Positions 2,081-64,000 of a stretch of DNA of 64,000 nt are shown here, piece by piece. Where the stretch lies: NCBI GenBank assembly GCA_016185545.1, contig JACPNJ010000005.1, forward strand, positions 79,013 through 143,012, read 5' to 3'. The translations under genes and the position numbers were made by a program. Each line of letters opens with the position of its first letter. The stretch's first letter is position 1. This DNA is from Candidatus Yanofskybacteria bacterium. Lineage in GTDB: Bacteria > Patescibacteriota > Minisyncoccia > 2-02-FULL-40-12 > IGHO2-01-FULL-4-A. The notes under the pieces were generated by a model that was not told the origin of the DNA, did not search any database, and saw only the letters and a program-made list of their open reading frames with translations.

Positions 2081-3571
2081 CTAATCCGAGCGTGGTTTCA
2101 TGAGTGGAAACAAAATAACCTCCCTGACCGAATGCGAATCAGTGAGTAATACCACCAGCCGGTCTATGCCAATGCCGACACCGGCGGCTGGCGGCATACC
2201 GTATTCAAGAGCTTCTATATAATCTTCGTCCAGCCGCTGGGCTTCTTCATTTCCTTTTTTAGCAACTTTTTCCTGCGCCTCAAAACGCTGACGCTGATCA
2301 GTAGGGTCGTTAAGTTCCGAAAAAGCATTTACTACTTCCATGCCGCCAACAACAAGCTGGAAGCGTGCCACATGATTGGGGTCATCATCCAGTTTTTTGG
2401 CAAGTGGCGAAATTTCAAGCGGGTGGTTAATTACAAAAGTCGGCTGTATGATATTGGGTCTGGCAACTTTTTTATATATCTCGTCGCCGAGATTGCCTTT
2501 GTTCATGCTTTTTTCAATTTTAATATCCAGCTCCTTGGCTTTTTCTTTCAAATCATTCTCGTCCGATTTGTCATAATCAAGCCCGGAATATTTTTTAAAC
2601 AAGTCGTTAAATGTAACTCTCGGGTATGGCCCGACAAAATGAATTTCTTTGCCTTGGTGCTCAATTTTGGCAGTCCCAAACTTCTTTTCCACTATATGTT
2701 TTAACATTGACTCCACAAATTCCATGGCTTTCTCATAATCCCAATAGGCCGCGTAAAATTCCAGCATCGTGAACTCCGGGTTATGTTCCCTATCCATGCC
2801 CTCATTACGGAAATTGCGCCCGATTTCAAAGACTTTCTCAAATCCCCCGACTAATAGCCGCTTAAGATAAAGCTCCGGCGCTATGCGTAAATAAAGCGGG
2901 AGGTCAAGCGTGTTGAGATGCGTTTTAAACGGCTTGGCATTGGCGCCACCATATAATGTTTGTAAAATCGGCGTCTCCACTTCAAGAAAATCGTTGCTTA
3001 TCAAGTATTGGCGCAAATGTTCAATTATATTGCTTCTCGCTTCAAACTTGGTCTTAACTTCCTGGTTAAAAATCAAATCCAAATAACGCTTGCGGTAACG
3101 TTCCTCAACGTCTTGCAAACCGTGCCATTTTTCCGGCAATGGCAATAATGATTTAGTGAGTAGTGAGTAGTGAGTAGTGAGTAGAGTTCTTTCGTCTTGT
3201 TTGGTTTTAAAAAGCGTGCCGCCGACTTCAATAAAATCCCCGATGTCAACGGTTTTTATAAAAAACTCGTATTCCTTGCCACCCAACACATCTTTTTTGA
3301 AAAATAGCTGGATTTGAACTGGAACACTCGTGGTGAGCGAAATCGAACCATCTTGCAAATCAAAAAATGCCAAGCCACCATGTTCGCGTTTTGCCATTAC
3401 CCGTCCGGCTAATATAATTTCCATCTCTTTGGCCGCCAGATTATCAAAATCGGCCAGTGCTTCGGCAATCTTATGGGTACGCGAAGACCGCGCCGGATAC
3501 GCATCTATGCCGGCTTTTTGGAGTTTTTCTAATTTTTCCAGCCGTGCTTGGCGAAGATCGTTTAAAGCCAT
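2081..3571 (-). CDS. lysS: lysyl-tRNA synthetase, class II
   Basis: 496 aa; OB-fold anticodon-binding N-domain plus class II core (FRNEGMDREHNPEFTMLEFY, GGMEVVNAFSELNDP). Carries an internal heptamer array. Confidence 0.9.
   Translation of the reverse strand: MALNDLRQARLEKLEKLQKAGIDAYPARSSRTHKIAEALADFDNLAAKEMEIILAGRVMAKREHGGLAFFDLQDGSISLTTSVPVQIQLFFKKDVLGGKEYEFFIKTVDIGDFIEVGGTLFKTKQDERTLLTTHYSLLTKSLLPLPEKWHGLQDVEERYRKRYLDLIFNQEVKTKFEARSNIIEHLRQYLISNDFLEVETPILQTLYGGANAKPFKTHLNTLDLPLYLRIAPELYLKRLLVGGFEKVFEIGRNFRNEGMDREHNPEFTMLEFYAAYWDYEKAMEFVESMLKHIVEKKFGTAKIEHQGKEIHFVGPYPRVTFNDLFKKYSGLDYDKSDENDLKEKAKELDIKIEKSMNKGNLGDEIYKKVARPNIIQPTFVINHPLEISPLAKKLDDDPNHVARFQLVVGGMEVVNAFSELNDPTDQRQRFEAQEKVAKKGNEEAQRLDEDYIEALEYGMPPAAGVGIGIDRLVVLLTDSHSVREVILFPLMKPRSD
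3154..3184. repeat. (TAGTGAG)x4 heptamer tandem array inside lysS, in frame overall (encodes LLTTHYSLLT)
   Basis: Direct reading of gtgagtagtgagtagtgagtagtgagtag; the protein shows an extra LLTTHYSLLTK before the conserved KSLLPLPEKWHG. Confidence 0.9.
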
Positions 3572-3693: not shown

Positions 3694-3694
3694 T

Positions 3695-7592: not shown

Positions 7593-7604
7593 AAACCACT
7601 TGCC

Positions 7605-8438: not shown

Positions 8439-8473
8439 AATTAGAGATTAGTGATTAGCAGTTGGCAATTTCG

Positions 8474-12277: not shown

Positions 12278-12295
12278 ACAACTTTAAGGTAGAAC

Positions 12296-16755: not shown

Positions 16756-16763
16756 CTTGTTTG

Positions 16764-16791
16764 TTTCTAGTTTCTAGTTTCTAGTTTCTAG
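16764..16791. repeat. (TTTCTAG)x4 heptamer array immediately upstream of the murG start codon
   Basis: tttctagtttctagtttctagtttctag then T-run; 8 nt from ATG 16755. Confidence 0.9.
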
Positions 16792-16830
16792 TTTTTTTAA
16801 CCAGACGCCAGCAATAGAACTAGTGACTAA

Positions 16831-17252: not shown

Positions 17253-18965
17253 TTATTTTAATAATTTAAGCATTTCTCGCCAAACTCTTGTATTTATCAC
17301 GTCTTTTTTGCCAGACCACCCTCTGCGCGCTTGAGCTATACCTAATTCCAAAAATTTGAAGTGGCTAATATCATGAGCATCGGAATCAATCGCCAGCTTG
17401 ATTCCAGTATCAATGGCTTTGCGGATATATTCGTCTTTGAGGTCCAGACGTTCCGGCCAAGCGTTGACTTCCAGCACCGTTTTGGTCCGTTTAGCGGCTT
17501 TTATAAGCTCATCAATATTCACTTTGTACGGCTCTCTTTTTTGTATCAACCGACCCGTGGGATGGAATAATATATCGATGTTCGGATTTTCTATCGCCCT
17601 AATTATACGCTTCGTCATTTCAATTTCCGACATAGTAAAATTAGAGTGTACAGACGCTCCGACTACATCAAGTTTGGCCAACACCTCGTCATTTATATCA
17701 AGCGTGCCGTCTTTCAGTATATCCACTTCGCTACCCTTGAGAATTTTAATGCCGCTAATTTGTTTTTGAACTTTATCAATTTCAGCCATTTGCTTGGTCA
17801 GCTTTTTTTCATCCAATCCGCCGGCCATAGCAAGTCGCTTGGTGTGGTCGGTTATAACAATATATTCAAGCCCCAGTTTTTTTGCCGCTTCAGCCATTTC
17901 CTTAATTGAATGTTCGCCATCAGTCCAATCGGTCTGAACCTGTAAATCGCCACGCAGATCATCATAACCGATTAGTCTCGGTAATTCTCCCTTAAATGAT
18001 GATTTTATTTCTCCGCTATTCGTTCTAATTTCCGGCTCCATCCACTCCATGCCTAATTTTTTATAAATCTCCTCTTCTGTTTTTCCAGCGACAAGTCTTT
18101 TACTTTTAAAAAGTCCATACTCGTTCAACTTGTATCCTTTTTTAATCGCAATCTCCCGAACGGCTATATTGTGGTATTTGTCTCCGGTAAAATATTGAAG
18201 CGCCGCCCCGAATGATTCCGGCGGCAGAACGCGTACGTCGGCATTCATTCCCATTTTTAACCGCACCGAGGTTTTAGTCGGACCTTTGACCAATATTTCC
18301 TGAACTTCAGACATTTTTACAAAATAATCCATAACTTTCGCTGGCATGTCGGAAATAACCAGAATGTCTAAATCACCCACAGTTTCCTGCATCCTCCTGA
18401 TTGAACCGGCTGGTTCGGCCCGTTTGATATAAGGCAAGCCGCGCAAATCATCCAGCATTTTGCGGACAGTCGGCAAAATATGGCCCAACAAAAAACGGCC
18501 GTGTGACTGCCGCAGGAATTCTATGCCTTTTAATATTTTTTGCTCGGATTTCTCGCCAAGACCCTCAAGTCCCCGCAATTTGCCAGCTTTAGCTGCTCTT
18601 TCTAGGTCGTCTTGATTCTTGATTCTTAATTCTTGATATAATTTTTTAACCAGCTTTGGTCCAACTCCTTCAATACCCATCAGCTCCTCCACTTCAATAG
18701 GAAATTGTTTTTTTAACTTTTCGTAATCTTTAATATGACCTGTTTTGATATATTCTTCAATTCGTTCGGCAATGCCTTGGCCAACACCAGATATGTCTTC
18801 AAGCGCTTTGAGTCCGCCTTTTTTATAAATTTCACCTATGCCCTCTTCAAGAGATTGTACGGAAAATGCCGCATGCTCATACGCCCGCGGCTTAAATTCC
18901 ACTTCTTTCATATCCAAAAACGCCGCCATCTCCCCCAAAATTTTCGCCAGCCCCTGGTTAGACAT
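17253..18965 (-). CDS. polX: family X DNA polymerase with C-terminal PHP domain
   Basis: 570 aa; HhH and Pol-beta-like nucleotidyltransferase N-half; PHP histidinol-phosphatase-like C-half (HSNFTMSE...DSDAH). Confidence 0.88.
   Translation of the reverse strand: MSNQGLAKILGEMAAFLDMKEVEFKPRAYEHAAFSVQSLEEGIGEIYKKGGLKALEDISGVGQGIAERIEEYIKTGHIKDYEKLKKQFPIEVEELMGIEGVGPKLVKKLYQELRIKNQDDLERAAKAGKLRGLEGLGEKSEQKILKGIEFLRQSHGRFLLGHILPTVRKMLDDLRGLPYIKRAEPAGSIRRMQETVGDLDILVISDMPAKVMDYFVKMSEVQEILVKGPTKTSVRLKMGMNADVRVLPPESFGAALQYFTGDKYHNIAVREIAIKKGYKLNEYGLFKSKRLVAGKTEEEIYKKLGMEWMEPEIRTNSGEIKSSFKGELPRLIGYDDLRGDLQVQTDWTDGEHSIKEMAEAAKKLGLEYIVITDHTKRLAMAGGLDEKKLTKQMAEIDKVQKQISGIKILKGSEVDILKDGTLDINDEVLAKLDVVGASVHSNFTMSEIEMTKRIIRAIENPNIDILFHPTGRLIQKREPYKVNIDELIKAAKRTKTVLEVNAWPERLDLKDEYIRKAIDTGIKLAIDSDAHDISHFKFLELGIAQARRGWSGKKDVINTRVWREMLKLLK
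18611..18637. repeat. (CTTGATT/CTTAATT)x~4 heptamer array inside polX
   Basis: cttgattcttgattcttaattcttgat, coding ..ELRIKNQDD.. Confidence 0.8.
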
Positions 18966-19761: not shown

Positions 19762-19763
19762 AA

Positions 19764-19843
19764 CTAGTTGCTAGTTGCTAGTTGCTAGTTGCTAGTTAAA
19801 GAACAATCAAACAAAACTAAAAACTAGAAACTAAAAACTAGAA
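19764..19843. repeat. (CTAGTTG)x~5 followed by (CTAAAAACTAGAAA)x2 tandem arrays, immediately upstream of the MFS-like gene start
   Basis: ctagttgctagttgctagttgctagttgctagtt ... ctaaaaactagaaactaaaaactagaaact. Confidence 0.85.
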
Positions 19844-19844
19844 A

Positions 19845-21119
19845 CTACTTAATCTGCGGCAACCCAAACCCTGATGCATTATCATCCCCAAGGGGTGATA
19901 GATCAGTTGCTAATAAGTGCAAAAAGTCACGGGTAGTCGTCATCGGGTCGGTAACTGCTGATTGCCAGTATTTAGCCGCTAATCCGGCTACAAAAGGCGA
20001 AGCCATAGAAGTCCCTGAAAGTATCACGTAACTGCCGTTATTCCATGTTGATTCAATATATTCGCCCGGTACGGCAAATTCAATATCGCGATCCTCAACA
20101 ATCCAAGAGGTGGAATCTGAGTTGGTGCCTCGTGAACTCCAGTTAGTTACGGTTATAGATTGGTCAATGGCGCCCACCGCTACAACCGAAGCATAAGCGG
20201 CTGGATAATCCACACTGTTGGGAAATGGCCCGTCATTGCCCGCGGCCGCCACAAGCAGAACTCCCTTAAACGAGGCGTAGTTGACGGCATCGCGTATTAG
20301 CGATGATTCTTGATCTGAACCGAAACTCATATTTACCACATTAGCTCCCTGGTCAGCCGCCAAACGCAGGGCTACGGCAATATCATCAGCGTAACAAGAA
20401 CCATTGGTTCCGCAAACTTTATAAGCAAAAATATTAGCTTGAGGCGCAACTCCGTAAATACCCCTGCCATCAGCACCGGCATTAGCCGCTATAATCCCGG
20501 CAACATGAGTACCGTGGCCATTTCTATCATCGCATTTACCGTCAATAATCGGAAAGCGTGAATTTGTAAAATCCTTGCATTGAACAATGCGCTCGGCTAA
20601 ATCCGGGTGTGAAACATTAACTCCCGTATCCAAGACGGCCACATTTGCATCCGCACCACCGAAAGTAGAGGTAATCAAGGAATCGTTGTATATTTTTTCG
20701 ATTCCCCATGGCGTCTGGTCAGACGGTAAATATCTGACAGTACCGCCCTTGCCTTTTGTTGCTTTTGGTACAAAAATTTTGGTTGGTGCCGGAGTTTGAA
20801 TATCTGAAACTTCGGGCGTTGGTTTAACTGATGAATCTTGGTTCGGTTGTTCGATAGCCAATGGGTCTTCAGGTAAAATTTGCAGTACGGCAACAGGTTC
20901 AATTTCTACTCCAAAAATTTTGGCCAACCGCAATTGAAAATCAGAAGCATCGGTAGTGAAACCGTTATCAAAATTATGCCTTACCCCAAGAGCATTTTTC
21001 CAAAAACCCTTGGTTGACTTAACAAAATACCTGCCATTGTCGGCAGCATGAGCGGTAGGCAAAAATACCAAAAAAAACGTTAAAAGCAAGCAAAAAACCA
21101 GTTTTTTAGTAATATTCAT
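19845..21119 (-). CDS. secreted subtilisin-like serine protease (S8)
   Basis: Signal peptide; catalytic triad motifs VLDTGV, HGTHVAG, GTSMASP. Confidence 0.88.
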   Translation of the reverse strand: MNITKKLVFCLLLTFFLVFLPTAHAADNGRYFVKSTKGFWKNALGVRHNFDNGFTTDASDFQLRLAKIFGVEIEPVAVLQILPEDPLAIEQPNQDSSVKPTPEVSDIQTPAPTKIFVPKATKGKGGTVRYLPSDQTPWGIEKIYNDSLITSTFGGADANVAVLDTGVNVSHPDLAERIVQCKDFTNSRFPIIDGKCDDRNGHGTHVAGIIAANAGADGRGIYGVAPQANIFAYKVCGTNGSCYADDIAVALRLAADQGANVVNMSFGSDQESSLIRDAVNYASFKGVLLVAAAGNDGPFPNSVDYPAAYASVVAVGAIDQSITVTNWSSRGTNSDSTSWIVEDRDIEFAVPGEYIESTWNNGSYVILSGTSMASPFVAGLAAKYWQSAVTDPMTTTRDFLHLLATDLSPLGDDNASGFGLPQIK

Positions 21120-21232: not shown

Positions 21233-22645
21233 TTAGGCGAGCAATACCTTTCTCGTGCTAATTTTGTGGCTGTTTATGCTTATCAGCGCCAACGCCATCC
21301 AAAAAATTAAACTCCCCTGCTGAGAGGTCCAGAGAAAATGGTCAAAAATGCCAACAAGCAAAAATAAAAAACTAAAAATGAAAAATAAGAAACTGAAAAG
21401 TTTCTTAAAATCGGCGCAACGAATAAAATGCCAAAAGCTAAAAAATAAAAACAACAGGAAGACACTAAAACCAATAAATCCGGTTTCGCTCGCAATCAGT
21501 AAGTAAATATTGTGGACCGGTTGGTAGGCGGTTGCCGGCAAATGTTTATATTTAAACATGAAATCAGGCACGAATTGGCCGATACCAATGCCCAGTAATG
21601 GATGGGAAACAGCCACGGATTCGGCAATTTTATTGTAAAAAACTCTCTCGGAAAAGGCTGGATCTTGTCCCGAAATATGAATACGAGAATTAACTTGCGG
21701 CCAATAAATGAGAGAAAATACAGTCGCAGCAATAACCGATACTACAAAAATTTTAAAAATTTTTTGTTTAAGAATTAAATCCCGACGAAACTCTTTTTTA
21801 AAAAAAACGGCTAAAAATCCGGCTAATGTGCCCAAAACCCAAAGCCCGACAACCACTCGCGAAAAAGTAGAAAAGAGAGCAAAAAGCAAAATAATATAAA
21901 CAAACAGCAATAAACCATCCTTAGTTCTTTGGACTTCGGGCGGGTTCTTTTTTGTATCTCGATGTAAAAAGTAAAAACAAAGTGCAAAGATAGTTGTAAA
22001 AAGCCAAGCGGCAAGTATGTTGGGATGCGGGGTAGTCCCATAGGCGCGTAGGTATTTTTCGCCGCCGGCAAAAAATATTGCAACTCCGGTAGTATTCACC
22101 GATAGCGGACTCTCGCCAAGCAATCGCAGACTAATACTCCCCTGCTTGAGATATTGGACGATACCGATGACGGCCTGAAAAAGACCGGAAGCGATAATAA
22201 TTACCAAAACGGTGCGAAATTGAAAAACTTTGCCAAAATTAGATTTAAGGTAAAAATAAAACCCGATAAATTCCGCCAATTTGAGCAATTGGTAAAAAGA
22301 TAAGCCGACAATTCGTGAGTTAAAAATTGAAATCGCCGAAATTACGAAAAAAATTACCAGCCAGAATGTAGAAAATTTTAAAATTTGAAATTTGGGCTTT
22401 AAAAATTCATTTGAAATTTGAAATTTGAAATTTGAAATTTTCCAACTGCCCGCCATGATTCTTATTATCCAAAAAACAAATAATGTCACCAAAAGAATAT
22501 CTGTGCCATAAAGGTATGTGTTAGTCCACTGATTAAACGGCCGGGTCCACTCATATAAAATCACCCGTGCCTGCACCGGCACCGCAAAGATCAGTAGATA
22601 AAAAACGGCGGATTCAAGTTTCTTAAATAGGTATTGACTTTGCAT
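21233..22645 (-). CDS. O-antigen ligase/polymerase-like polytopic membrane protein
   Basis: 470 aa, >10 TM helices; Wzy_C-like loop; contains a heptamer array. Confidence 0.45.
   Translation of the reverse strand: MQSQYLFKKLESAVFYLLIFAVPVQARVILYEWTRPFNQWTNTYLYGTDILLVTLFVFWIIRIMAGSWKISNFKFQISNEFLKPKFQILKFSTFWLVIFFVISAISIFNSRIVGLSFYQLLKLAEFIGFYFYLKSNFGKVFQFRTVLVIIIASGLFQAVIGIVQYLKQGSISLRLLGESPLSVNTTGVAIFFAGGEKYLRAYGTTPHPNILAAWLFTTIFALCFYFLHRDTKKNPPEVQRTKDGLLLFVYIILLFALFSTFSRVVVGLWVLGTLAGFLAVFFKKEFRRDLILKQKIFKIFVVSVIAATVFSLIYWPQVNSRIHISGQDPAFSERVFYNKIAESVAVSHPLLGIGIGQFVPDFMFKYKHLPATAYQPVHNIYLLIASETGFIGFSVFLLFLFFSFWHFIRCADFKKLFSFLFFIFSFLFLLVGIFDHFLWTSQQGSLIFWMALALISINSHKISTRKVLLA
22375..22441. 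repeat. (GAAATTT)n heptamer array inside the membrane protein gene
   Basis: aaatttgaaatttg ... gaaatttgaaatttgaaatttgaaattt; encodes KFQISNFKFQ.. Confidence 0.8.
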
Positions 22646-28894: not shown

Positions 28895-30316
28895 CTATAA
28901 TTCGAATGATTCGCCCTCAACTGGCGCTACGGCTTCAATGCCATATTTTTCGTGAATTAGATTAGCGAGGGTGCGGGCGGATTCGTCTTCGCCTTGAACG
29001 ACAAAGACTTTTTTTAGATTGCCCGCACCGCCGCCTTGAACTGTTGAACCGCCAACCCACTTGATGAGACTTAGCTGATCGGCATGGGCGGAATAAGCTG
29101 ACAGGTTTTCTATATGGCACTTGACTGGCACCGTTTGGCCCATGATTCTGACTTCTTTTTCGCCCCTTTGAATGCGCCGGCCCAAACTGCCGTCAACTTG
29201 GTAACCGACAAAAAGTATCGTGCTGTTTGTATCCGGTAAATAACGCATTTCGTGATGCAAAATCCTGCCACCTTGGCTCATGCCTGAACCGGCAATTATA
29301 ATCTTAGGCGCCGGCACGTTATTTATCGCTTTTGATTCTTCGACGGCGGTTGTGAGTTTTAAACCCGGGAAATTAAATACGTCGTCACCGGAACCGATCA
29401 AATACGCCGTCTCTTTATTAAAATATTCGCGGTGTTTTTGGTATACAGCGGTCATTTTATTGGCGAGGGGGCTGTCAACAAACACCGGTACCCGTGGAAT
29501 TTTATTTTCATTGAAAAGCCCGTTTAATTCATGCAGAAGCTCTTGCGTGCGCTCAACGGCAAATGAGGGTATCATCAGCACCCCGCTTCGCTTGATTGTG
29601 TCCTCAATTACCGAAATCAGCTTACTTCTTCTCTCCTTTCTGCCCTCATGCACTCGATCACCATAAGCCGATTCAATAACAATATAGTCGGCATTTTTAA
29701 TTTTTTCGGTCGGTCGCAGAAGCGGCGTCGGCGGATTGCCGAGGTCGCCAGAGAAGAAAATCTTTCTGGTACCAGAAAGATTTTCTTCTCTGGCTTGGTA
29801 ATTGGTAATTGGTAATTGGTAATTGGTTCGCCATTGTATTTCTACAATTGCCGAACCCAGTATATGACCTGCGTCATGGAAAATTGCAGTAATCCCCTCC
29901 AGTTCAATCGGTTCATCATAAAAAACCCCCTCCACAAGCGACATCAGCCCGTCCAGATCCTCCTGTATAAATAATGGCTCATGTCCCATCTCTTTAGCTT
30001 CATCCAAAATCTTATTCAAATTATCAGGAAGTGCGACGGCCATCAGGTCGCGGGTGGCAGTGGTCGTGTAAACTTTGCCGCGGAAACCGTCTTTGTAAAG
30101 TTTCGGCAAACGCCCGATGTGGTCAATATGGCTGTGGGTAATAAAAACATATTTAATCTCTGCGGGATTATATTTGAATTGACCATAATTCAATTCTTCG
30201 GCATATCTTGTGCCTTGATTCAAGCCGCAATCTACGAGTATTTTGGTATGGCCGTGTTCGAGTAGATAATTAGCTCCGGTAACGGTACGAGCACCACCAT
30301 AAAAAGTTATTTTCAT
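28895..30316 (-). CDS. RNase J-like beta-CASP metallo-beta-lactamase ribonuclease
   Basis: HSHIDHIG motif; MBL plus beta-CASP plus RNA-specificity-like C-terminus; contains a heptamer array. Confidence 0.8.
   Translation of the reverse strand: MKITFYGGARTVTGANYLLEHGHTKILVDCGLNQGTRYAEELNYGQFKYNPAEIKYVFITHSHIDHIGRLPKLYKDGFRGKVYTTTATRDLMAVALPDNLNKILDEAKEMGHEPLFIQEDLDGLMSLVEGVFYDEPIELEGITAIFHDAGHILGSAIVEIQWRTNYQLPITNYQAREENLSGTRKIFFSGDLGNPPTPLLRPTEKIKNADYIVIESAYGDRVHEGRKERRSKLISVIEDTIKRSGVLMIPSFAVERTQELLHELNGLFNENKIPRVPVFVDSPLANKMTAVYQKHREYFNKETAYLIGSGDDVFNFPGLKLTTAVEESKAINNVPAPKIIIAGSGMSQGGRILHHEMRYLPDTNSTILFVGYQVDGSLGRRIQRGEKEVRIMGQTVPVKCHIENLSAYSAHADQLSLIKWVGGSTVQGGGAGNLKKVFVVQGEDESARTLANLIHEKYGIEAVAPVEGESFEL
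29797..29827. repeat. (GGTAATT)x4 heptamer array inside the RNase J-like gene
   Basis: ggtaattggtaattggtaattggtaattgg encoding ..NYQLPITNYQ.. Confidence 0.85.
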
Positions 30317-32540: not shown

Positions 32541-32653
32541 TTACAAAATCATTGCTCTAATGTAAATCTCAAAATGTAAAATGACAGTTAAAAATTTGAA
32601 ATTTTACGCTTTAATTTTGCATTTTGATTTTTAAATTTTGAATTTAGTTCGCC

Positions 32654-42452: not shown

Positions 42453-42457
42453 GGAAA

Positions 42458-42488
42458 GAATCTAGAATCTAGAATCTAGAAACTAGAA
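42458..42488. repeat. (GAATCTA)x3 + GAAACTA heptamer array abutting the ruvA start
   Basis: gaatctagaatctagaatctagaaactagaatt. Confidence 0.85.
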
Positions 42489-42552
42489 TTAAGAGTTAAT
42501 TTAATCATAAGACGACTGGCTGTTTTTTGCAAAAGAATGTTTAAGTTATCCT

Positions 42553-49890: not shown

Positions 49891-50020
49891 ATAAATTCAA
49901 AACTCAAATTACAAATTTTAATTGAAGCTCAAAATCTAAATTTTAAAACAGTTTTAGACTTTGAATTTTAGATTTCATTTAAAATTTGGATTTGAAAATT
50001 TGAATTTCTGCCGAATTTGT

Positions 50021-51298
50021 TTATCTGGTCGGTAAACCGGCTGGCGGTTGTCCTTTCTTTGCCTCCACGCGCGGAAACGCTGGCGCTTTTACACCGATAC
50101 CTGGCAAATGGAACAATGTTGCCAGTTCTTCAGTATTTAAAATTATAAACTGGCCAACAAAAGCTCTCTCTCGGTATTTTTGGTAAAGATGCCATTTGCG
50201 CCTGTACTCGCGCTCACGATAAAAAAACCCTTTATCCGATGGGAAAAGCCACGAAAACCATCCTTTATCTTTAGTAATCGTTTTTTTGTTAGGCTTGAAA
50301 CTGTTAAGATTATTGAGATAAAACTGCTTGAGCATACCCATTACCGCAGATATATGCGAGCCATGAAAACGATCTTTGCGGGCAATGTAAAAAAATCTAT
50401 AACCGGATTTGAAACCAAGTTTTGAAATTTTATTTTCAACTTGGTCAAGAGTAAATTTTTGACCAGGCGTAAGCTTTTGCAACGAAAATTCATCTTTTTT
50501 CTTTTCTTCATGCACCGGCGTTCCGCCGGGTAAAAGTAGATCAATAAAATCCACTACCTTGCCCAAAGAGCCACGCTCAACTTTGGGCTCTTTGCCAATA
50601 ATTTTATCTACTTCAGTCTTGGCTTCTTTTACCCAAGCATCACCCGTAGCTCTAATCGTAAGCTGCAGCCATATATGCTCACCCGATTCCAGCGCGCTCA
50701 TGATTTCGGCCAACGGCGCTAGAGGATCAGTCCGTTTGAATTCATCCTTGCCTGATTCTTCTTCAAAAAAGGGATAGGTTTTAATCGGATAGGCATCAGG
50801 TCTTGTAAAAACCAATTCTGTACCAAAAAGATCATATTCATCATTAGGAAGATACTCTGGCAACTGTGTGATATAGTCATCAGCTATTTTAATTTCAGCA
50901 TCCGGATATTGGGCAAAAATCTGCGCTTCAATCAAATTGCGCAGATCTTCTGGGGTTCTTATATAAAAATTGGTTTCGCCGCCATTGCCGACTATTTCAA
51001 ACGAAAGCCAGGGTTGAACCTTGCCTTTGAAAAATTCATCTTTCCAGCTTACGGAACCAGTGTAAAGCGCATGAAGGCCAGCAAAAATGTTTTCAGCTAT
51101 CTTCGGGCTTTTTTGGACATCGGGTGGAGGTTTAATTTCAAGTAAGACCCACTTTATGGAAAGAAGGTATTGTTTTCTTACATAAAAAAGCCAGCCGTCA
51201 AGCGCGCCGAAAAATAACAAAAACGGGGTGAATGTCCACCAGTAGTGTGCTAACAAGTAAAAAGATGTTTTTAGTGGACTAAGAACGTCGAGAAACAA
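50021..51298 (-). CDS. hypothetical membrane protein (2 N-terminal TM helices plus large cytoplasmic domain)
   Basis: 425 aa; 130 nt downstream of the ATPase gene on the same strand; TTG start. Confidence 0.45.
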   Translation of the reverse strand: MFLDVLSPLKTSFYLLAHYWWTFTPFLLFFGALDGWLFYVRKQYLLSIKWVLLEIKPPPDVQKSPKIAENIFAGLHALYTGSVSWKDEFFKGKVQPWLSFEIVGNGGETNFYIRTPEDLRNLIEAQIFAQYPDAEIKIADDYITQLPEYLPNDEYDLFGTELVFTRPDAYPIKTYPFFEEESGKDEFKRTDPLAPLAEIMSALESGEHIWLQLTIRATGDAWVKEAKTEVDKIIGKEPKVERGSLGKVVDFIDLLLPGGTPVHEEKKKDEFSLQKLTPGQKFTLDQVENKISKLGFKSGYRFFYIARKDRFHGSHISAVMGMLKQFYLNNLNSFKPNKKTITKDKGWFSWLFPSDKGFFYREREYRRKWHLYQKYRERAFVGQFIILNTEELATLFHLPGIGVKAPAFPRVEAKKGQPPAGLPTR

Positions 51299-51303
51299 AA
51301 ATC

Positions 51304-51402
51304 AGGTGTCAGGTGTCAGGTGTCAGGTGTCAGGTGTCAAAGTTTAGAAGTTATTTTATCTTATACTCTGTAACCTGTAACCTGTAACCTGTAACCTGTA
51401 AC
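51304..51402. repeat. (CAGGTGT)x5 and (CTGTAAC)x5 heptamer arrays filling the 100-bp intergenic region
   Basis: caggtgtcaggtgtcaggtgtcaggtgtcaggtgt ... ctgtaacctgtaacctgtaacctgtaacctgtaac; the first abuts the start at 51298, the second abuts the stop at 51402. Confidence 0.9.
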
Positions 51403-52517
51403 TAGGCCTCCTTGAGGGCATAAATCCCGTTGCCTTTTTTATCAAAAGTTTTAGAATCCTGCAGATTTAAAAGTATGGTGTTTTCTTTGACCATGCGGTG
51501 AGATAATACTTGCGACACTATTTCTTTTTTGTGCATCGGCTGACCGGCTGAATGCAGAAGATCAGTAATTACATCCTTGACGGTACCGGCTTTATAACCC
51601 CAATCGGCCAAACCATATAAACCACGACCAACCAGAACAAATCTTTTATCTTTAATCAATTCATTATGGACTGTCTGGACATTAGCTCTGCGGTTATCAA
51701 AACCGGATACATTGATGAGTCGGGTAATCTCGCGAAAATGCTTGGGCTTGCCATCGCGCTTCAATACTAAGAAGGCCTTGTCTCTGACACCTCTGGGTTT
51801 AATATCCGACCAATTGGCCAAACCAATTTGGCCGAAATTATTCTTGGCTATATTTTGTGAAATTGAAAGATAAGAAGCGACTATTGCCGGGGTTACGTCT
51901 TTAAGCGAGGCACCTGATTTTTTATAAAAATCCACGACGGCCGATTCTGCAATAGGGGCATTTTCCTTCTCTAAAACATTCATAAAAATAGAAAGTGATT
52001 TTTTAAAATATTCGGCGTGCTGGTCAGATAAAGCCCAGTATGCATGGAGGTCGTCAGTTTCTGCAAACTTCTTAAGTCGTTCATCAAGAAACAGAAAAAA
52101 AACTAAAGCGGCATTAGCCGGGTTCTCTTTAGCAACTCCGGAAAATTTAGCAAAGAGATTATCTTCCCTGCTAACTCCACCGGCCTGTTCAAGAATATTT
52201 TCGGCAAGACTGACAAACGGCTTAACCTTGGCGGCTATTCCGTCATTCAAGTTTCCCCTGATTTGTTTCAGTGAAACTTCCTCAATCTGTCTGACTCTTT
52301 CACGGGTTATGCCATAGCTTTTACCTATGGATTCAAGAGTTTCTTTCTTACCTGTTTTCAAGCCAAAACGACGTGAAATCACATCTTTATTCCTGGTACT
52401 TAAAACCGCAAGTACCTGTCCGACCACCCCCCTGATTGTAGCAGTTAAATTGGGCATACAAGCTTGTCCAAGAGCAAGGAGCGAAGCAACAAAGCGATTG
52501 GGTAACAAGGTTAGCAC
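51402..52517 (-). CDS. sigma-70 region-4 HTH domain protein with ~270-aa C-terminal domain of unknown function
   Basis: ISRRFGLKTGKKETLESIGKSYGITRERVRQIEEVSLKQIR is a canonical sigma-70 r4.2; no regions 2/3. Confidence 0.5.
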   Translation of the reverse strand: MLTLLPNRFVASLLALGQACMPNLTATIRGVVGQVLAVLSTRNKDVISRRFGLKTGKKETLESIGKSYGITRERVRQIEEVSLKQIRGNLNDGIAAKVKPFVSLAENILEQAGGVSREDNLFAKFSGVAKENPANAALVFFLFLDERLKKFAETDDLHAYWALSDQHAEYFKKSLSIFMNVLEKENAPIAESAVVDFYKKSGASLKDVTPAIVASYLSISQNIAKNNFGQIGLANWSDIKPRGVRDKAFLVLKRDGKPKHFREITRLINVSGFDNRRANVQTVHNELIKDKRFVLVGRGLYGLADWGYKAGTVKDVITDLLHSAGQPMHKKEIVSQVLSHRMVKENTILLNLQDSKTFDKKGNGIYALKEA

Positions 52518-52775
52518 CCCGCCCTCTATGCACTTTAATAGCTTAGAAGGTGGGGTAAATAACTACTACCATGCTCGCTACACTACGCTTGCTGCGCGTG
52601 GGCATTTATTTAAAGATACCATATAGTTTCTAACGGGTCAATCACTTAACATATCAACATATAACTATGGAGTATGACGTGTCAACCCCGTACGAGGCAG
52701 AGGCACGCTGCGTGCCCTCGCGGCCTCGTTCGGGGTCAACCCCGAAATGAACTTTCTGGAAAATCTACTATGGGG

Positions 52776-53663: not shown

Positions 53664-53705
53664 AAAATATCAATTGGATTTTGGATTTTGACATTGGAAT
53701 TTATT

Positions 53706-55055
53706 TCAGAATAGCCATCTCCTCTTTTCTAGCTTTTGCCCTATAAATAATCTCAAAAATGATTTAGTCACGACTATTGAGCTGAATAAACTCATTAATA
53801 CTCCAATGCCCAGTGTTAAAGCAAAACCTTTGACTACCGAGATTGAAAAAATATACAAAATAATGGCACCCAGTATAGTCGTCACGTGACTGTCGCGTAT
53901 TGAATACCAGGCCCGATGGAAACCTTCGTTAAATGACTGCGGCAATGATTTACCTGCCTTAAATTCCTCGCGAAAACGGGCAAAAATTAAAACATTGGCA
54001 TCAACGGCCATGCCCAGAGATAGTATGAATCCGGCAATACCAGCCAGGGTCAGCGTGACTGGTACCAGTTTATAAATAGCCAGAACGATAATGGTATAAA
54101 TCAAAAGCGCCAGAACTGAAACCACGCCGGGAAGACGATAAAAAAGTATCATGAAAATTGCTACCAGCAATAAGCCATAAAGACCGGCCCGGAGAGATCT
54201 TTGGAGTGATTCCTGCCCCAATGATGGACCGATTGTCTGCTGTGAAATGAGCGTTATTGGAACCGGCAAAGCGCCAGCATTAAGATTATTGGCAAGATCC
54301 CTCGCTTCTTTTATCGTAAATCCACCGCTGATAACGGCGCGACCGCCCTGTATTTCGCTTTGGACTGTTGGCGCGCTTATGACCAAACCGTCAATATATA
54401 TGGCGACTCGTTTACCGAGATTGCGTCTGGTGATTTCAGCGAATAACTTAGCACCATCATCGTTCAGTTCCAGTGATATTTGCGGCTGTGATGTGGTTTG
54501 ATCAAAGGCAAGCTGGGAACGTTTGAGATGCTTGCCGGTCAGACCGGTTGATTGAAAATACGGGTCTTCGCCAAGCTGTTGGCCTTTTTGCTGGGCATCA
54601 AGGATTTTTTGTGATTCTTCCTGTGTTCGTTCTTCCTTGAATTCTAGAAACGGCGTTTGGCCTATCATTTGGATTGCTTGGTTAACATCGCTGATACCGG
54701 CCAGCTCCACAACCAATCTGTCTCTGCCCTCTATCTGAACTAACGGTTCGGCTACACCAAAAAGATTGACTCTGCGCTCTATTACATCGCGCACACCGGC
54801 CATGGCATCACCAGCATCCTGTCCGCTACTGTCGGAAAGATCGGCTTGATAAACCAAATGGGTACCACCAAGAAGGTCTAAACCGAGACGAAATGACGGA
54901 ACTTTAAACATATGCGGAACTTTGAACTTTGAACTTTGAACTTTGAGTTTAGCGTTAACGATGTCCGCCCCCTTGTCCCATCCTTGCGGATACACAAAAA
55001 CCGCCAAAAACAGTGCGGCGGCCAAAATTATCAGCGGTGTAAATTTACGAAGCAT
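53706..55055 (-). CDS. secD: protein translocase subunit SecD
   Basis: 449 aa; SecD architecture (LLGGTHLVY... and C-terminal TMs). Confidence 0.88.
   Translation of the reverse strand: MLRKFTPLIILAAALFLAVFVYPQGWDKGADIVNAKLKVQSSKFKVPHMFKVPSFRLGLDLLGGTHLVYQADLSDSSGQDAGDAMAGVRDVIERRVNLFGVAEPLVQIEGRDRLVVELAGISDVNQAIQMIGQTPFLEFKEERTQEESQKILDAQQKGQQLGEDPYFQSTGLTGKHLKRSQLAFDQTTSQPQISLELNDDGAKLFAEITRRNLGKRVAIYIDGLVISAPTVQSEIQGGRAVISGGFTIKEARDLANNLNAGALPVPITLISQQTIGPSLGQESLQRSLRAGLYGLLLVAIFMILFYRLPGVVSVLALLIYTIIVLAIYKLVPVTLTLAGIAGFILSLGMAVDANVLIFARFREEFKAGKSLPQSFNEGFHRAWYSIRDSHVTTILGAIILYIFSISVVKGFALTLGIGVLMSLFSSIVVTKSFLRLFIGQKLEKRRWLF
54917..54950. repeat. (GAACTTT)x4 heptamer array in the SecD N-terminal region
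   Basis: Encodes KFKVPHMFKVPSF. Confidence 0.85.
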
Positions 55056-55526: not shown

Positions 55527-55632
55527 TTGAAAAAGATCATACCTGCTGGAAATAAGGCAATTTTAGGCCACTTCCAACATCGATATCATCTTAACATGTA
55601 TAGTGCTAGATTGTCAACATTTCGTTGGCTCA

Positions 55633-58274: not shown

Positions 58275-58339
58275 AATCCAAATGACAAATCAATGACTAA
58301 AATCCAAAACCCAAATTTAATTTAGTCATTTGAGCTTTG

Positions 58340-59026
58340 TCATTTGACGTTAATTTTTACGATAATATCTCCTTGTTTAATCTTCAATACCACATCCATA
58401 CCCTTAATCACCTTGCCGAAAACCGTGTGTTTGCCGTAGAGATGCTGTTGCGGTTTGGTTGTAACAATGAAAAACTGGCTGCCGTTGGTGTTGGGTCCGG
58501 CATTGGCCATGGCAATATAACCCGGGTCAACAGGCAAGGATTGCAAGGTATCATTATATATATAGCCCTGTTCTTCGTATTGAGCAATTAATTCATCAGG
58601 GGCGCCAAGAGATTTTAAATTAATCTCATCTTCAAAAGGATAACCCAGGCCAGTTGGTCCGCCAGTACCGACTTTCGGGTCATCCGTTCTAGACAGCGGG
58701 TCACCGCCCTGTATCATAAAGTCATCAATAACCCTATGAAATTTGGTTCCATTGTAAAATCCTGACTTTGCCAATTTCACAAAATTAGTCACGGTCTTGG
58801 GAGCAACTTTAGGATAAAGCTCTAGCTCAATATTGCCGCGGGTAGTTACCATTGTAGCCTTAACTGTCTCCGGTAATGACTCAACGGTCGGGCTCGCTTG
58901 AACTGTTGGCGTAGGCGATGGTTCCTGGCTTGCACTCGGATTGACATTGCCCCGCTTTTTTAAAGCAAAATAACCGCCAAGGGCAACTATAATGGCAACA
59001 AAAACTAGAAGAAAGACTTTATTCAT
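58340..59026 (-). CDS. cyclophilin-type peptidyl-prolyl isomerase, membrane-anchored/secreted
   Basis: [15 protein letters not shown] core. Confidence 0.88.
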
Positions 59027-61492: not shown

Positions 61493-64000
61493 TTATCTCC
61501 CATGACATCTTTTATATTTTTTACCTGACCCACAAAAACATGGGGCATTCCTTCCTATTCTCGCATGGTCGAGAATGTTTGATGGCCGACTTGATTCTTG
61601 CTCCATTTGTTTTGAGACAGCTGACCGACTAACTGCCAAATCCTCACGTTTTTCTTCAATTGCAACAGTTTTTGGCTGTTGGACAAATCCAACCTTAAAA
61701 ATTAAACCCGCCACTTGCGCTCCAATGGCCTCCTGCAGTTGAGTGAACATTTTTTGGCCTTCTATTTTATATTCAACTAACGGATCGCGCTGGCCGTAAG
61801 CACGCAGGCGCACCGAGTCGCGAAGATACTCCATCTGTTCAAGATGATCAACCCACAGCTCGTCTATCACGCGTAGTAAAACCATTTTCTCAATATGTCT
61901 CATTGATTCCACGCCTGTTTGCTGTTCACGCTGAATATAAACTTCATCAATCAAACCATGCAGAAATTCGGATAATTTGCCTGGCCCATTCGATGAGTTC
62001 AGGTCAAGCTCTTGTGGTTTTGCGATTTCGTTTAATTTAGCGTGCAAATCGCCAACCATCGGCATCAGAGTTTTAACACTCTCGGCTATTTCTTCGGTAT
62101 TATATCCCCCCGTTTCGCTTAAAGCGTGGAATTGCATAATTTTATCAATATGTTCGTGAATATAATTATTTATTTTGTCCTTGACGCCTTCTCCCCCCAG
62201 TATTTCCTTGCGCAAACTGTAAATCGCGGTTCTGTGGCGATTCATTACATCGTCATATTCTAGGACGTATTTTCGGATATCAAAGTTGTTGCCTTCAATT
62301 TTGGATTGGGCTTGCTCTATGGCGCGGGAAACGAAACGGTTTTCAATAACATCGTCTTCGCTTACGCCAAGCCGATCCATCAAGTTTTTAAGACGATCGC
62401 CGCCGAATATGCGTACCAGCTCATCTTCGGTGGATACAAAAAACTGCGAAGAGCCCGTGTCGCCCTGCCGGCCGGAACGTCCACGCAATTGATTATCTAT
62501 GCGCCTTGCTTCGTGCCTCTCCGTCCCAATCACATGTAAACCTCCTAATTCCTTTACTCTTTTATTTTCTTCCTCCCAATTTTTATATTCTTCATTTAAA
62601 AGTTTATCTTCTTCAATTTTAAATTTTGCCTGCCCCGTAGGGTCGCGAAGCGACTCCTTCGGGGAATTTTGAATTTTGAATTTGCTAGGCGCATGCCCGC
62701 CGAGCATGATATCAACACCCCTGCCGGCCATATTGGTTGCCACCGTAACAGCGCCGAGCCGACCGGCTTGAGCAATAATTTCACCCTCTTGTTCGTGGTT
62801 TTTGGCATTTAAAACTTTGTGCGGTATACCTTCACGGTTGAGATGCACCGATAAAAGTTCATTTTTAATAATCGCCGCCGTACCAACAAGTACCGGTTGA
62901 CCTTTAAGATGCCGCCCCTTGATTTCGGCAACAATTGCTCTGAATTTACCCGCTTCTGTTTTATATATACGATCGGGTAAATCAGCACGTATCATTTGTT
63001 TGTTGGTGGGAATAGTAACGACATCCAGTTTGTAAACCTTGTGAAACTCTTCAGCTGATGTCTGCGCCGTGCCGGTCATACCGGTAAGTTTTTTATACAA
63101 GCGAAAATAATTTTGGAAAGTAATCGTGGCATAAGTTCGGGATTCTTTCTGGACATATACCCCCTCTTTGGCTTCAATCGCTTGATGCAATCCCTCCGAC
63201 CATCGCCGCCCCGGCATTAAACGGCCGGTAAATTCATCTACTATGATTACTTCACCGTCTTTTACAACGTAATCCTTGTCGCGGTGGAAAAGAATTTGCG
63301 CTTTCAACGCCTGTTCAAGATGGTGAACATAACGAGTACCGCCTTCCTCGTAGATGTTTTTGAGATTCAGCACGCTTTCAACTTTTTCAATGCCTTTTTC
63401 GGTAATTGACACGGCTTTCAATTTTTCATCAACATTATAGTCTTCGTTTTCGTGGAGACGTGGAACAATTTTGGCAAAAGTTTCGTAAAGCTTAGTTGAA
63501 TCAGAATCCGGTGCAGAAATAATTAGCGGGGTTCTGGCTTCATCTATTAAAATGGAGTCAATTTCGTCAACAATGGCATAATTATGCCCTCGGGTCTGCG
63601 CAACTTGCCCCAATTCATATGCCATGTTGTCCCGTAAATAATCAAAACCGAATTCGTTATTGGTCCCATAAGTAATGTCGGCTTCGTATGCTTCTCGCCT
63701 AGTAACCGGACGCAGAAATTCATGAACAACCCTGAATGCCCCTGTTTCATCGCGTATTTCGTCTAATTTTCGTGATTTATCATTTTCTTTTTCACTTTTG
63801 AATTTGAAATTATCATTTTGAATTTTGAATTTTGAATTTTGAATTTCGCTATGCAGTGGATCATAAACGTAACTCATTTCATGGTTCAAACATCCGACAT
63901 TCATTCCGAGAAGATGGTATATCTGCCCCATCCATGCCGCATCGCGCCTTGAGAGATAATCGTTCACGGTAACTATGTGGACCCCATTAGAAGTAGCCGC
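61493..64000 (-). CDS. secA: preprotein translocase ATPase SecA (N-terminus beyond window edge)
   Basis: DEAD motor, GGLHVIGTERHE, C-terminal zinc finger CFCGSGKKYKRCHG; ORF open to position 64000. Confidence 0.92.
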   Translation of the reverse strand, partial: AATSNGVHIVTVNDYLSRRDAAWMGQIYHLLGMNVGCLNHEMSYVYDPLHSEIQNSKFKIQNDNFKFKSEKENDKSRKLDEIRDETGAFRVVHEFLRPVTRREAYEADITYGTNNEFGFDYLRDNMAYELGQVAQTRGHNYAIVDEIDSILIDEARTPLIISAPDSDSTKLYETFAKIVPRLHENEDYNVDEKLKAVSITEKGIEKVESVLNLKNIYEEGGTRYVHHLEQALKAQILFHRDKDYVVKDGEVIIVDEFTGRLMPGRRWSEGLHQAIEAKEGVYVQKESRTYATITFQNYFRLYKKLTGMTGTAQTSAEEFHKVYKLDVVTIPTNKQMIRADLPDRIYKTEAGKFRAIVAEIKGRHLKGQPVLVGTAAIIKNELLSVHLNREGIPHKVLNAKNHEQEGEIIAQAGRLGAVTVATNMAGRGVDIMLGGHAPSKFKIQNSPKESLRDPTGQAKFKIEEDKLLNEEYKNWEEENKRVKELGGLHVIGTERHEARRIDNQLRGRSGRQGDTGSSQFFVSTEDELVRIFGGDRLKNLMDRLGVSEDDVIENRFVSRAIEQAQSKIEGNNFDIRKYVLEYDDVMNRHRTAIYSLRKEILGGEGVKDKINNYIHEHIDKIMQFHALSETGGYNTEEIAESVKTLMPMVGDLHAKLNEIAKPQELDLNSSNGPGKLSEFLHGLIDEVYIQREQQTGVESMRHIEKMVLLRVIDELWVDHLEQMEYLRDSVRLRAYGQRDPLVEYKIEGQKMFTQLQEAIGAQVAGLIFKVGFVQQPKTVAIEEKREDLAVSRSAVSKQMEQESSRPSNILDHARIGRNAPCFCGSGKKYKRCHGR
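62624..62690. repeat. family B palindromic element inserted in frame in the secA variable linker (encodes NSPKESLRDPTGQAK)
   Basis: Direct sequence identity to 59420..59452. Confidence 0.8.
63815..63847. repeat. (ATTTTGA)x4 heptamer array in the secA C-terminal linker
   Basis: Encodes KFKIQNSKFKIQN. Confidence 0.8.

Follow-up and report, generated by a model that had tools for sequence, protein, structure and literature searches.

A heptamer hairpin between a sigma-like gene and a membrane protein gene

This study concerns a 64-kb stretch of DNA (the window) from a tiny groundwater bacterium and, within it, the spacer between a gene for a sigma-like protein, with Sigma70_r4 and HARE-HTH (RNA polymerase delta-like) domains, and a downstream gene for a 425-aa membrane protein that has no Pfam or NCBIfam match. 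This focal spacer holds two tandem arrays of seven-nucleotide units (heptamers), and arrays of the same period lie at other genes of the window. Exact matches to proteins MBI2669990 to MBI2670035 locate the window within a contig of 339,336 bp that belongs to a metagenome-assembled genome (MAG) of Candidatus Yanofskybacteria, and the assignment of the organism to this group of the candidate phyla radiation (CPR, Patescibacteria) is well supported. Almost all genes of the window are carried on the minus strand, and array units are given here in the sense of the genes.

The two focal arrays, which are built of GTTACAG and TGACACC units, are complementary at five of the seven positions of each unit, with ACCUG of the 3' arm pairing to CAGGU of the 5' arm. 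Their predicted fold comprises five helices of 5 bp each, with 2x2 internal loops between them and a 28-nt loop at the apex. It has an energy of -39 kcal/mol (z = -4.1), and 0 of 200 shuffled sequences folded as well. The helix extends from the final G of the TAG stop codon upstream to a point 3 nt short of the TTG with which the membrane protein gene starts (5 nt when only whole CAGGTGT units are counted). N-terminal conservation begins at this TTG codon in 9 of 10 relatives (MF[LS]D.L.PLKT). An earlier note on this DNA had listed five heptamer arrays, and all of their positions and distances were borne out. That note treated the arrays separately, whereas the two focal arrays are arms of one hairpin.

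Independent Logan assemblies match the window sequence with 0 mismatches, the whole secD array included, so the arrays are not an assembly artefact. Deposited proteins are likewise identical to the major facilitator superfamily (MFS; 219 aa), RuvA (196 aa) and MurG (377 aa) open reading frames (ORFs). For comparison, 173 other loci (among them contigs of relatives, distant CPR and Logan contigs) were examined and are designated by L-numbers.

One candidate role for the focal hairpin was considered and rejected. In phage T4 gene 38, a hairpin is known to bring the parts of a split Shine-Dalgarno (SD) sequence to the start codon, and the upstream ORF ends in AAGGAGG in the window, L004 and L084. 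Elsewhere CGAAGCC or CGAGGCC stands in its place, and the motif follows from the coding sequence.

Period-7 arrays have a narrow length and lie at start codons

Perfect period-7 runs of at least three copies occur ten times in the window, and comparable runs of periods 5, 6 and 8 to 15 number zero. Run lengths are bimodal, with a background of 14-18 nt (4.7 expected in simulation) and nine runs of 30-38 nt; the longest period-7 run in 50 order-2 Markov simulations reached 19 nt. All arrays comprise 4 to 5.7 units, without a long tail. A perfect 74-nt (TAGCGAA)10.6 array lies between two convergent stop codons in a distant CPR locus (L106, 2522-2595), and the limit of 4 to 5.7 units is thus not phylum-wide. 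Period-7 arrays are also present in the relatives L003, L004, L086 and L006, and array density in this lineage is about 25 times that of other CPR loci (10 arrays in the 64 kb of the window and 4 in 19 kb of L004, against 12 in 1.98 Mb of the remaining loci).

The units are nearly all different. At least 12 distinct ones are found in the window, none of which equals a consensus of the short tandemly repeated repetitive sequences (STRRs), and the focal units are absent from the 173 other loci. Units of TTTTGAA/TTTGAAA type, the only recurrent family in the window, are common to five arrays (at 22377, 32613, 49960, 62664 and 63796). It is well supported that these arrays of about 30-40 nt, nearly every unit of which is unique, are of the same kind as STRRs, the long simple sequence repeats (LSSRs) of Mrazek and the TAACTGA repeats of Beggiatoaceae.

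Spacer arrays occupy the interval from stop to start codon and do not separate -35 from -10 elements. Either their end is 2-8 nt from a start codon or they begin at or just after a stop codon, and paired arrays are complementary at five to six of seven positions; these features are well supported. The distance from array end to start codon is 2-8 nt in 13 arrays from 8 genomes (7, 2, 4 and 3 nt in the window; 6 and 4 nt in L003; 4 nt in L163; 5 and 4 nt in L087; 8 nt in L006; 7 nt in L170; 6 nt in L171), and partner arms start -3 to +11 nt from the stop codon. Arrays that leave part of their spacer free lie nearer to the start codon than would be expected if they were placed uniformly (Fisher combined p = 0.003, 9 independent loci). 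The placement of arrays in the translation-initiation region of at least four genes, already recognised in the earlier note, is therefore non-random. Helices that bridge stop and start codons are modestly enriched in general, occurring in 14 of 25 co-directional spacers against 8.1 expected (p = 0.012), so the arrays may be one way to build a wider element.

The earlier note had also proposed that the arrays replace the usual SD region. A GGAG/GAGG-type motif at -3 to -14 was found ahead of 6 of the 56 ORFs in the window; the other 50, array genes among them, are without one. With SD motifs this rare window-wide, there is nothing usual for the arrays to displace. This CPR lineage appears to use SD-independent initiation. 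Upstream regions in the window are A/T-rich.

Relatives keep the architecture and change the sequence

The nearest other genomes are Yanofskybacteria and Paceibacteria MAGs. Identity of the sigma-like protein is 89% in L003, 75% in L004, 71-67% in L086-L088, 60% in L006 and 39% in the distant L148. No relative surpassed 89% (genome scan) or 76% (metagenome scan) protein identity, and look-ups of exact proteins returned this MAG and short Logan contigs that stop at arrays, nothing else.

Across these relatives, the spacer between the sigma-like and membrane protein genes retains paired arms of unrelated sequence. The arms read TAGCGNT and CTANACG in L083, L085 and L087, TAGTGAG and CAACTAC in L086, and CTAGTTT and AACTAWAG-type in L088. 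L006 sets (TTTGTGA)4 against CAGGTTACAAACAA, which holds one copy of the window's 5'-arm unit (single-copy seed CAGGTTACA), and L003 has a degenerate CAAGTTT arm that its partner matches in part. The periodic hairpin design folds likewise in L083, L085, L086, L087 and L088.

A similar picture emerges at the next spacer, between the membrane protein and ATPase genes, where perfect or near-perfect pairs are found in L003 (TAGAAAA/TTCTACT), L087 (TAGCGNT/CTAWACG) and L148 (TAGGTTT/AACACCT). The focal pair is thus perfect in the window and degenerate in L003, and the reverse is true of the next spacer. Paired arrays extend to distant CPR: L148 has them in both spacers (AGAATAG/AATCCTC and TAGGTTT/AACACCT), and L104 has a GTAGTTT-like arm against ACTACAA.

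Two comparisons address whether arms match their partners specifically. Mean arm duplex energy is -26.0 kcal/mol for cognate and -12.4 kcal/mol for non-cognate combinations, and the cognate partner is placed first or second in most rows of the arm-pairing comparison. Within the TAGCGNT/CTANACG family, 6 of 42 paired columns vary against 10 of 18 internal-loop columns (Fisher p = 0.003), or 0 of 42 against 9 of 18 when L085 is left out, in a comparison that is circular in part, since these sequences also served to predict the structure.

Conservation of a different kind is seen upstream of ruvA. Among relatives with at least 90% RuvA identity, the window and L163, which comes from the genome with the 89% identical sigma-like protein, share a homologous ATTCTAG array that has five units in both and differs by four substitutions and a 1-nt change in the spacer; L170 and L171 have unrelated arrays at the same place, (TAAACTG)4 and (GCTATAA)4.4, and four other contigs have none. 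L003 secD similarly holds a homologous, decayed array of the same length as that of the window.

Other arrays in spacers and within genes

Further array hairpins and single arrays of the window are collected in Table 1. In the spacer ahead of the MFS gene, (TAGTTTY)5 begins with the TAG stop codon of the S8 peptidase gene and pairs at six of seven positions per unit with (CAACTAG)4.9 (-30.5 kcal/mol, z = -4.8). The decayed hairpin ahead of the ATPase gene folds at -29.9 kcal/mol (z about -5). The single murG array has an upstream partner of one unit only (CACTAGTTCT; -19.4 kcal/mol, z = -3.2), and the ruvA array sits in a divergent promoter region common to uvrB.

Six other spacers (12278-12463, 52518-52775, 1894-2080, 3572-3694, 7256-7604 and 10250-10541) fold very stably and have no Rfam match (z = -5 to -9 on the best strand; -45 to -93 kcal/mol for the four that were folded individually). 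In the first of these, an outer stem runs from a TAG stop codon to 15 nt before the next ATG, and 3572-3694 contains a 22-bp hairpin that closes 1 nt before the lysS ATG. Scans of the window with Rfam 15 and for tRNAs returned only a tRNA-Lys (46487-46559) at gathering score.

Seven further arrays, which the earlier note had not listed, lie in frame inside genes (lysS, polX, the wzy-like gene, the beta-CASP gene, secD and, twice, secA), and the frame is kept in all of them. Across the array, the lysS product can be aligned gap-free with LysRS of Geobacillus (TLLTTHYSLLT against SIKVSSYEFLT), so this array replaces sequence and inserts none. SecD is as long as its array-less relatives, and the unit of its array derives from local TTCAAAGTTCC (FKVP) codons. 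Other arrays do add residues. The beta-CASP array adjoins a perfect 48-nt palindrome (gccagagaagaaaatctttctggt and accagaaagattttcttctctggc; 29747-29794) that is translated in frame, and the two together account for 19 aa inserted with respect to TTHA0252 of T. thermophilus. The wzy-like array corresponds to a 16-aa insertion relative to distant homologues, and arrays in a Mur ligase of L163 and a FemAB protein of L171 each add 4 aa. Net changes of 0 or 12 nt do not amount to whole 7-nt units added, so arrays form by replacement or with an accompanying deletion and not by pure slippage. In secA (about 62600-62690), a GC-rich hairpin, ccccgaaggagtcgcttcgcgaccctacgggg, with TTTTGAA-type repeats on both sides is translated after the conserved SecA motif VATNMAGRGVDI; this segment looks like a small, tolerated in-frame insert.

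Slippage stimulated by neighbouring hairpins was considered as a source of the arrays and rejected, as unusually stable neighbouring structure was confined to the array in the beta-CASP gene, the second one in secA and a single flank at murG, and the other 12 arrays were without it.

Table 1. Coordinates of heptamer arrays, hairpins and genes in the window
Feature	Coordinates	Strand	Remark
Focal 5' arm, (GTTACAG)5, perfect	51368..51402	-	Begins on the last base (G) of the TAG stop codon at 51404-51402
Focal loop, 28 nt, AGTATAAGATAAAATAACTTCTAAACTT	51340..51367	-	Holds the -10-like hexamers TAAGAT and TAAAAT
Focal 3' arm, (TGACACC)5.4, perfect	51302..51339	-	Ends 3 nt before TTG at 51298
Second paired hairpin, (TAGTTTY)5 / 15-nt loop / (CAACTAG)4.9	19762..19847	-	(CAACTAG)4.9 at 19764-19797 ends 2 nt before MFS TTG
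Decayed paired hairpin, AAATTCA-type/TTTGAAT-type arms	49891..50020	-	Membrane protein stop codon to ATPase TTG
Stop-to-start hairpin, arms of 14-nt period (AAATGACAAAGCTC-type)	58275..58342	-	Helix takes in TGA stop codon; 3' arm ends 5 nt before TTG at 58274
Single array, (AAACTAG)4.6	16763..16794	-	Ends 7-8 nt before murG ATG
Single array, (ATTCTAG)4.7	42457..42489	-	4 nt before ruvA TTG
Short array, (CTAATCW)2.7	8440..8458	-	1 nt upstream of mreC GTG
Short array, (CAAAATC)2.4	53674..53690	-	10 nt upstream of secF ATG
Degenerate TTTTGAA-type array	32613..32645	-	8 nt past a stop codon
(CTACTCA)4.4 in lysS	3154..3184	-	aa 130-140
(ATCAAGA)4, one mismatch, in polX	18610..18637	-	aa 110-119
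TTTGAAA-type array in O-antigen-ligase-like (wzy-like) gene	22377..22440	-	aa 69-90
(ACCAATT)4.7 in beta-CASP/TTHA0252-like RNase gene	29795..29827	-	
(TCAAAGT)4.3 in secD	54917..54946	-	aa 37-47
TTTTGAA-type array in secA	62664..62683	-	Flanks GC-rich hairpin insertion
TTTTGAA-type array in secA N-terminal domain	63796..63846	-	Within 17-23-aa insertion relative to relatives
lysS	2081-3571		Pfam assignment
mreC, mreB	7605-8438, 8474-9523		Pfam assignment
murG	15622-16755		Pfam assignment
polX	17253-18965		Pfam assignment
MFS fragment	19102-19761		Pfam assignment
S8 peptidase	19845-21119		Pfam assignment
ruvA	41862-42452		Pfam assignment
VirD4/TraD/CedB-like ATPase gene, after membrane protein gene	48295-49890	-	Sub-threshold ATPase matches
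425-aa membrane protein gene, TTG start	50021..51298	-	Downstream of focal spacer
Sigma70_r4 + HARE-HTH (RNA polymerase delta-like) gene	51402-52517	-	Pfam; upstream of focal spacer
secF, secD	52776-55055		Pfam assignment
secA	61493 onward		Pfam assignment

A proposed role of arrays as arms of translation-gating hairpins

The explanation that we tentatively favour is that these are STRR/LSSR-type heptanucleotide arrays of a CPR lineage that serve as the arms of stop-to-start hairpins and as 5' leaders, probably gating translation of the downstream gene. On a polycistronic RNA, the hairpin would bury about 40 nt ahead of the start codon, a stretch that would have to be single-stranded for the 30S subunit in an SD-poor host. 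A ribosome that reaches the upstream stop codon would unwind the base of the 5' arm and free the start-proximal units of the 3' arm, such that downstream initiation would be coupled to upstream translation. Unpaired arrays, such as those of murG and ruvA, would be plain 5' leaders. Each array would arise in a burst from a seed nearby, degenerate through point mutations and in time be overwritten by a new one, and selection would maintain the complementarity of arms; the arrays would not act as copy-number switches.

Several observations weigh against this explanation. We infer translational coupling purely from the geometry of the spacers. Both strands fold equally well, with the focal spacer favouring the antisense strand (-45.5 kcal/mol, z = -6.6) and the MFS spacer the sense strand, so that an RNA structure is indistinguishable from a DNA structure. 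Besides the partial circularity of the comparison of paired and loop columns, compensatory changes within the alignable family, whose paired core is invariant, number 0 in 21 pairs, and the evidence for covariation comes only from comparisons between families that cannot be aligned. The focal spacer of the more distant relatives L018 and L158 contains a canonical GC-rich terminator and a TGGTATAAT promoter, which favours a transcriptional reading. Arrays in coding sequence and in spacers share one distribution of lengths, so that array length probably reflects how arrays are generated and not a function as leader. Finally, predicted leader folds at ruvA (-11.4 kcal/mol), MFS (-10.3 kcal/mol) and murG (-7.0 kcal/mol) are more stable than the median of -5.1 kcal/mol.

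Two related ideas were set aside in the course of this analysis. Strand asymmetry by G-U pairs was tried as a discriminator of RNA and DNA structure, and the focal and MFS hairpins gave opposite preferences. The idea that arrays furnish structure-free leaders fits the focal leader (0.0 kcal/mol) but is not general, given the more structured ruvA, MFS and murG leaders.

A fairly unlikely alternative is that the arrays are neutral debris without function. A bias of replication or repair peculiar to the lineage (slippage by 7 nt, or repeated templated fill-in when breaks are repaired) would scatter them over the genome, and they would persist only in tolerant places, namely the edges of spacers in a genome without SD motifs and permissive segments of proteins. 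Their presence in essential genes at the same length of 30-34 nt, the near absence of shared units and their decay by point mutation all fit such an origin. The coding arrays (net 0, 0, +12 and +12 nt) moreover resemble repair scars in combining replacement with indels, and Mrazek et al. (2007), as summarised in PMC4679880, offer an explanation of heptamer excess by polymerase contacts. Neutral debris would leave unexplained why two arrays in one spacer are complementary at five to six of seven positions in at least seven independent spacers, why pairing is twice as strong between cognate arms as between non-cognate ones, why variation avoids paired positions, and why arrays keep a spacing of 2-8 nt to start codons.

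Fairly unlikely as well is that the spacers mark boundaries of transcription units. Here, the hairpin and the U-rich start region would form an intrinsic terminator or attenuator of the upstream gene, and a promoter whose -10 box lies in the loop would drive the downstream gene, with the 3' arm as its 5' untranslated region (UTR). Besides the spacers of L018 and L158, evidence for this comes from U-rich tracts after the 3' arms (UGAUUUUUGUUU in the focal spacer, UAGUUUUGG in the MFS spacer) and from the loop hexamer TAAGAT, which is kept in the window, L083 and L086 despite arms of unrelated sequence. A promoter-like GTTACA-17-TAAAAT match (9 of 12 consensus positions) spans the focal 5' arm and loop, but such matches occur at only about 1.7 times the chance level (45 sites against 27 expected). 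The U-rich tract may be there for coding, since it overlaps conserved Met-Phe codons, and several hairpins (L003) are not followed by a U-run. The stems are AU-rich and broken every 5 bp, with loops of 15-28 nt (28 nt in the focal case), unlike the canonical terminators of the window (e.g. 44797-44764), and a terminator scan of the window did not call the focal hairpin.

An improbable extension of the favoured explanation concerns the origin of the arrays. A dedicated, lineage-specific process could write arrays of about 32 nt in one step from a local motif of 7-10 nt, overwriting what was there, and Patescibacteria could exploit the product to assemble and reassemble, in modular fashion, stop-to-start RNA hairpins for the coupling of neighbouring genes where SD signals are lacking. 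That writing would overwrite and not merely insert is drawn from the two conserved proteins without net length change. Iterative templated synthesis during the repair of breaks or gaps is a candidate for this process.

Phase variation, as proposed in the earlier note, appears highly unlikely. Contingency loci of Haemophilus and Neisseria, and the AGAT repeat in the uspA2 5' UTR of Moraxella, are long, hypervariable tracts of 1-5-nt units at surface, lipooligosaccharide or restriction-modification genes. On this reading of the window's arrays, slipped-strand mispairing would add or remove units, and the resulting change in the length or spacing of the leader would switch or tune expression within a population. 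The arrays described here share with contingency loci the perfect tandem repetition in 5' regions, where an altered unit number could affect expression. Copy-number-dependent heptads are also known from the Vibrio cholerae ctxAB promoter (bioRxiv 10.1101/2021.05.14.444153). In addition, Logan contigs (SRR12113424, SRR12113420) that enter the 32-nt murG array from either side break off after exactly 30 nt (k-1), and contigs also stop inside the 34-nt MFS array, although arrays shorter than 38 nt have no repeated 31-mer. These stops would fit a branch caused by a co-existing longer allele, or effects of graph simplification.

In contrast to contingency loci, the tracts here are short, confined to 4-5.7 units, and associated with housekeeping genes (murG, ruvA, secD, lysS). 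The other array genes (mreC, secF, secA, polX, an MFS transporter and the membrane protein gene) include no surface, antigenic or restriction-modification gene either. The ruvA and secD arrays hold their unit number over species-level divergence (about 10% at the protein level) while gaining substitutions, which, together with the housekeeping nature of the genes, argues against phase variation. Coding arrays are all in frame, and gain or loss of a unit on one side only would disrupt an otherwise maintained hairpin.

HutP is a protein that recognises repeats of the UAG-N4 type. A multimeric RNA- or DNA-binding protein that reads a core every 7 nt (UAG-N4, or in the manner of S1, Csp or CsrA) would suit the TAG found every 7 nt in 8 of 9 stop-proximal arms and in three start-proximal arrays, the concentration of CTAG in arrays (16 of the window's 95 sites in 0.8% of its length) and the proposal of such proteins for TAACTGA repeats (MacGregor 2015, PMC4679880), but is very improbable, given that the focal GTTACAG and TGACACC and many other units are without TAG, that no unit is common across arrays, that stop-codon seeding explains TAG in 5' arms and complementarity explains CTA in 3' arms, and that no candidate protein was identified.

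Relation to known repeat systems

Hairpins between genes are familiar from other bacteria. Repetitive extragenic palindromic (REP) sequences and bacterial interspersed mosaic elements (BIMEs) are imperfect hairpins of about 35 bp after stop codons in enterobacterial operons that affect mRNA stability, termination and downstream expression. REPs belong to a conserved sequence family spread by REP-associated tyrosine transposases (RAYTs), whereas the hairpins of the window are built locally from heptamers and have no consensus in common. Translational coupling by the unmasking of structure is known for the MS2 coat and replicase genes and for E. coli rpmI-rplT. In these cases a helix of unique sequence hides the downstream start codon and is opened by the ribosome; here the helix would be made of repeat arrays, and coupling is deduced.

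Perfect, recent tandem repeats of similar behaviour are also known from Ehrlichia ruminantium. STRR1, STRR2 and STRR3 have the units CCCCAGT, TTGGTCA and CAACAGT. Heptamers of the STRR type were reportedly described in cyanobacteria by Mazel in 1990 and Vioque in 1997. The arrays of the window are like STRRs and LSSRs in their period-7 excess and in their distribution, which is mostly in spacers and sometimes within genes. STRRs form a few unit families of many copies, whereas most units here are unique; the narrow range of 4-5.7 units, the paired arms and the length-neutral replacement within conserved proteins are features not reported for STRRs. At Nostoc recF/recO (bioRxiv 10.1101/2022.06.06.494920), arrays near or over start codons have measurable effects on expression, and the TTTTGAA unit of recF is also present in the window.

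TAACTGA repeats (MacGregor 2015, PMC4679880) offer a close parallel. Two to six tandem heptamers lie a few nucleotides before start codons, in some cases over the upstream stop codon; recognisable SD sequences are scarce, downstream genes vary widely in kind and include murG, in-frame copies are few, and a translational role has been proposed. In the TAACTGA hosts (Beggiatoaceae, cyanobacteria and Bacteroidetes) one unit dominates, which suggests a sequence-specific binder, whereas many units occur here and the host belongs to a CPR phylum. The TAACTGA work describes a single indirect repeat and no complementary stop-to-start pairs, which are present here. Start-adjacent heptamers have been linked to expression effects in Beggiatoaceae (PMC4679880) and at Nostoc recF/recO (bioRxiv 10.1101/2022.06.06.494920). 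The earlier note's interpretation is thus supported in part, as regards start-region placement and, through these published parallels, a link to expression, and is not supported as regards SD replacement, contingency behaviour and separate arrays.

The tandem repeats of Borgs (PMC9879509) are, like the arrays here, perfect and recent, arise independently from local seeds in spacers and ORFs, and turn over fast. Borg units are longer, variable, A-rich and multiples of 3 in ORFs, whereas the units here are strictly 7 nt even in ORFs. Among the papers searched, no report of heptamer arrays in CPR was found. What sets the present arrays apart from the TAACTGA, STRR/LSSR and Nostoc heptamers is their many unrelated units, complementary pairs, tight unit number and replacement inside conserved proteins.

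Additional features of the window

Elements of a different kind from the heptamer arrays were also observed. A self-complementary 16-nt unit, TAGAGGCTCAACCTCG (GAGG...CCTC), is repeated 2.4 times at each of two sites 4 kb apart (11475-11512 and 15413-15450); the copies are internally perfect with a common consensus, as in a dispersed hairpin element, and the Logan contigs L001 and L002 stop within the second TAGAGGCTCAACCTCG copy. A 25-nt unit, TTCTGCACGACATCGCATGTCGTGC, occurs twice at 41311-41360 and has an inner inverted repeat, GCACGACAT...ATGTCGTGC. An identical upstream stretch and start, gcaggtatgatctttttcaaTTGAAT, at 44960-44989 (+) and 55521-55550 (-), precedes two ORFs (44984-46366, +; 55155-55526, -). 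The 5' end of a gene is thus duplicated, and Logan contig L173 starts precisely at this repeat.

The uvrB gene of a close relative (L170, 655-4281) carries an intein with a LAGLIDADG homing endonuclease and encodes 1208 aa, whereas uvrB of the window encodes 668 aa. Over the whole window, two palindromes fall far short of expectation, TCGA (observed/expected 0.37) and GATC (0.56), which suggests restriction-modification pressure. A similar link for CTAG was rejected, as this palindrome is not depleted overall (ratio 1.22) and the arrays are rich in it. A suspected split or frameshift of secA at the window edge was likewise rejected; the ORF merely continues beyond the window.

Implications for gene expression in CPR bacteria

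CPR bacteria are uncultivated and the control of their gene expression is almost unknown; here, helices from stop to start codon recur in an SD-poor genome. If functional, they would provide an unusually clear natural case of structure that is kept without sequence and a handle on the translation of neighbouring genes in minimal genomes. In annotation, heptamer arrays of this kind do not warrant a phase-variation label by default.

The narrow range of unit number, its stability in decayed arrays and the replacement of sequence fit poorly with stepwise slippage and bear on why heptanucleotide repeats dominate in some prokaryotes. If arrays are indeed written in one step and exploited as coupling hairpins, they would represent a new class of cis-regulatory element that evolves fast and conserves its position and architecture but not its sequence.

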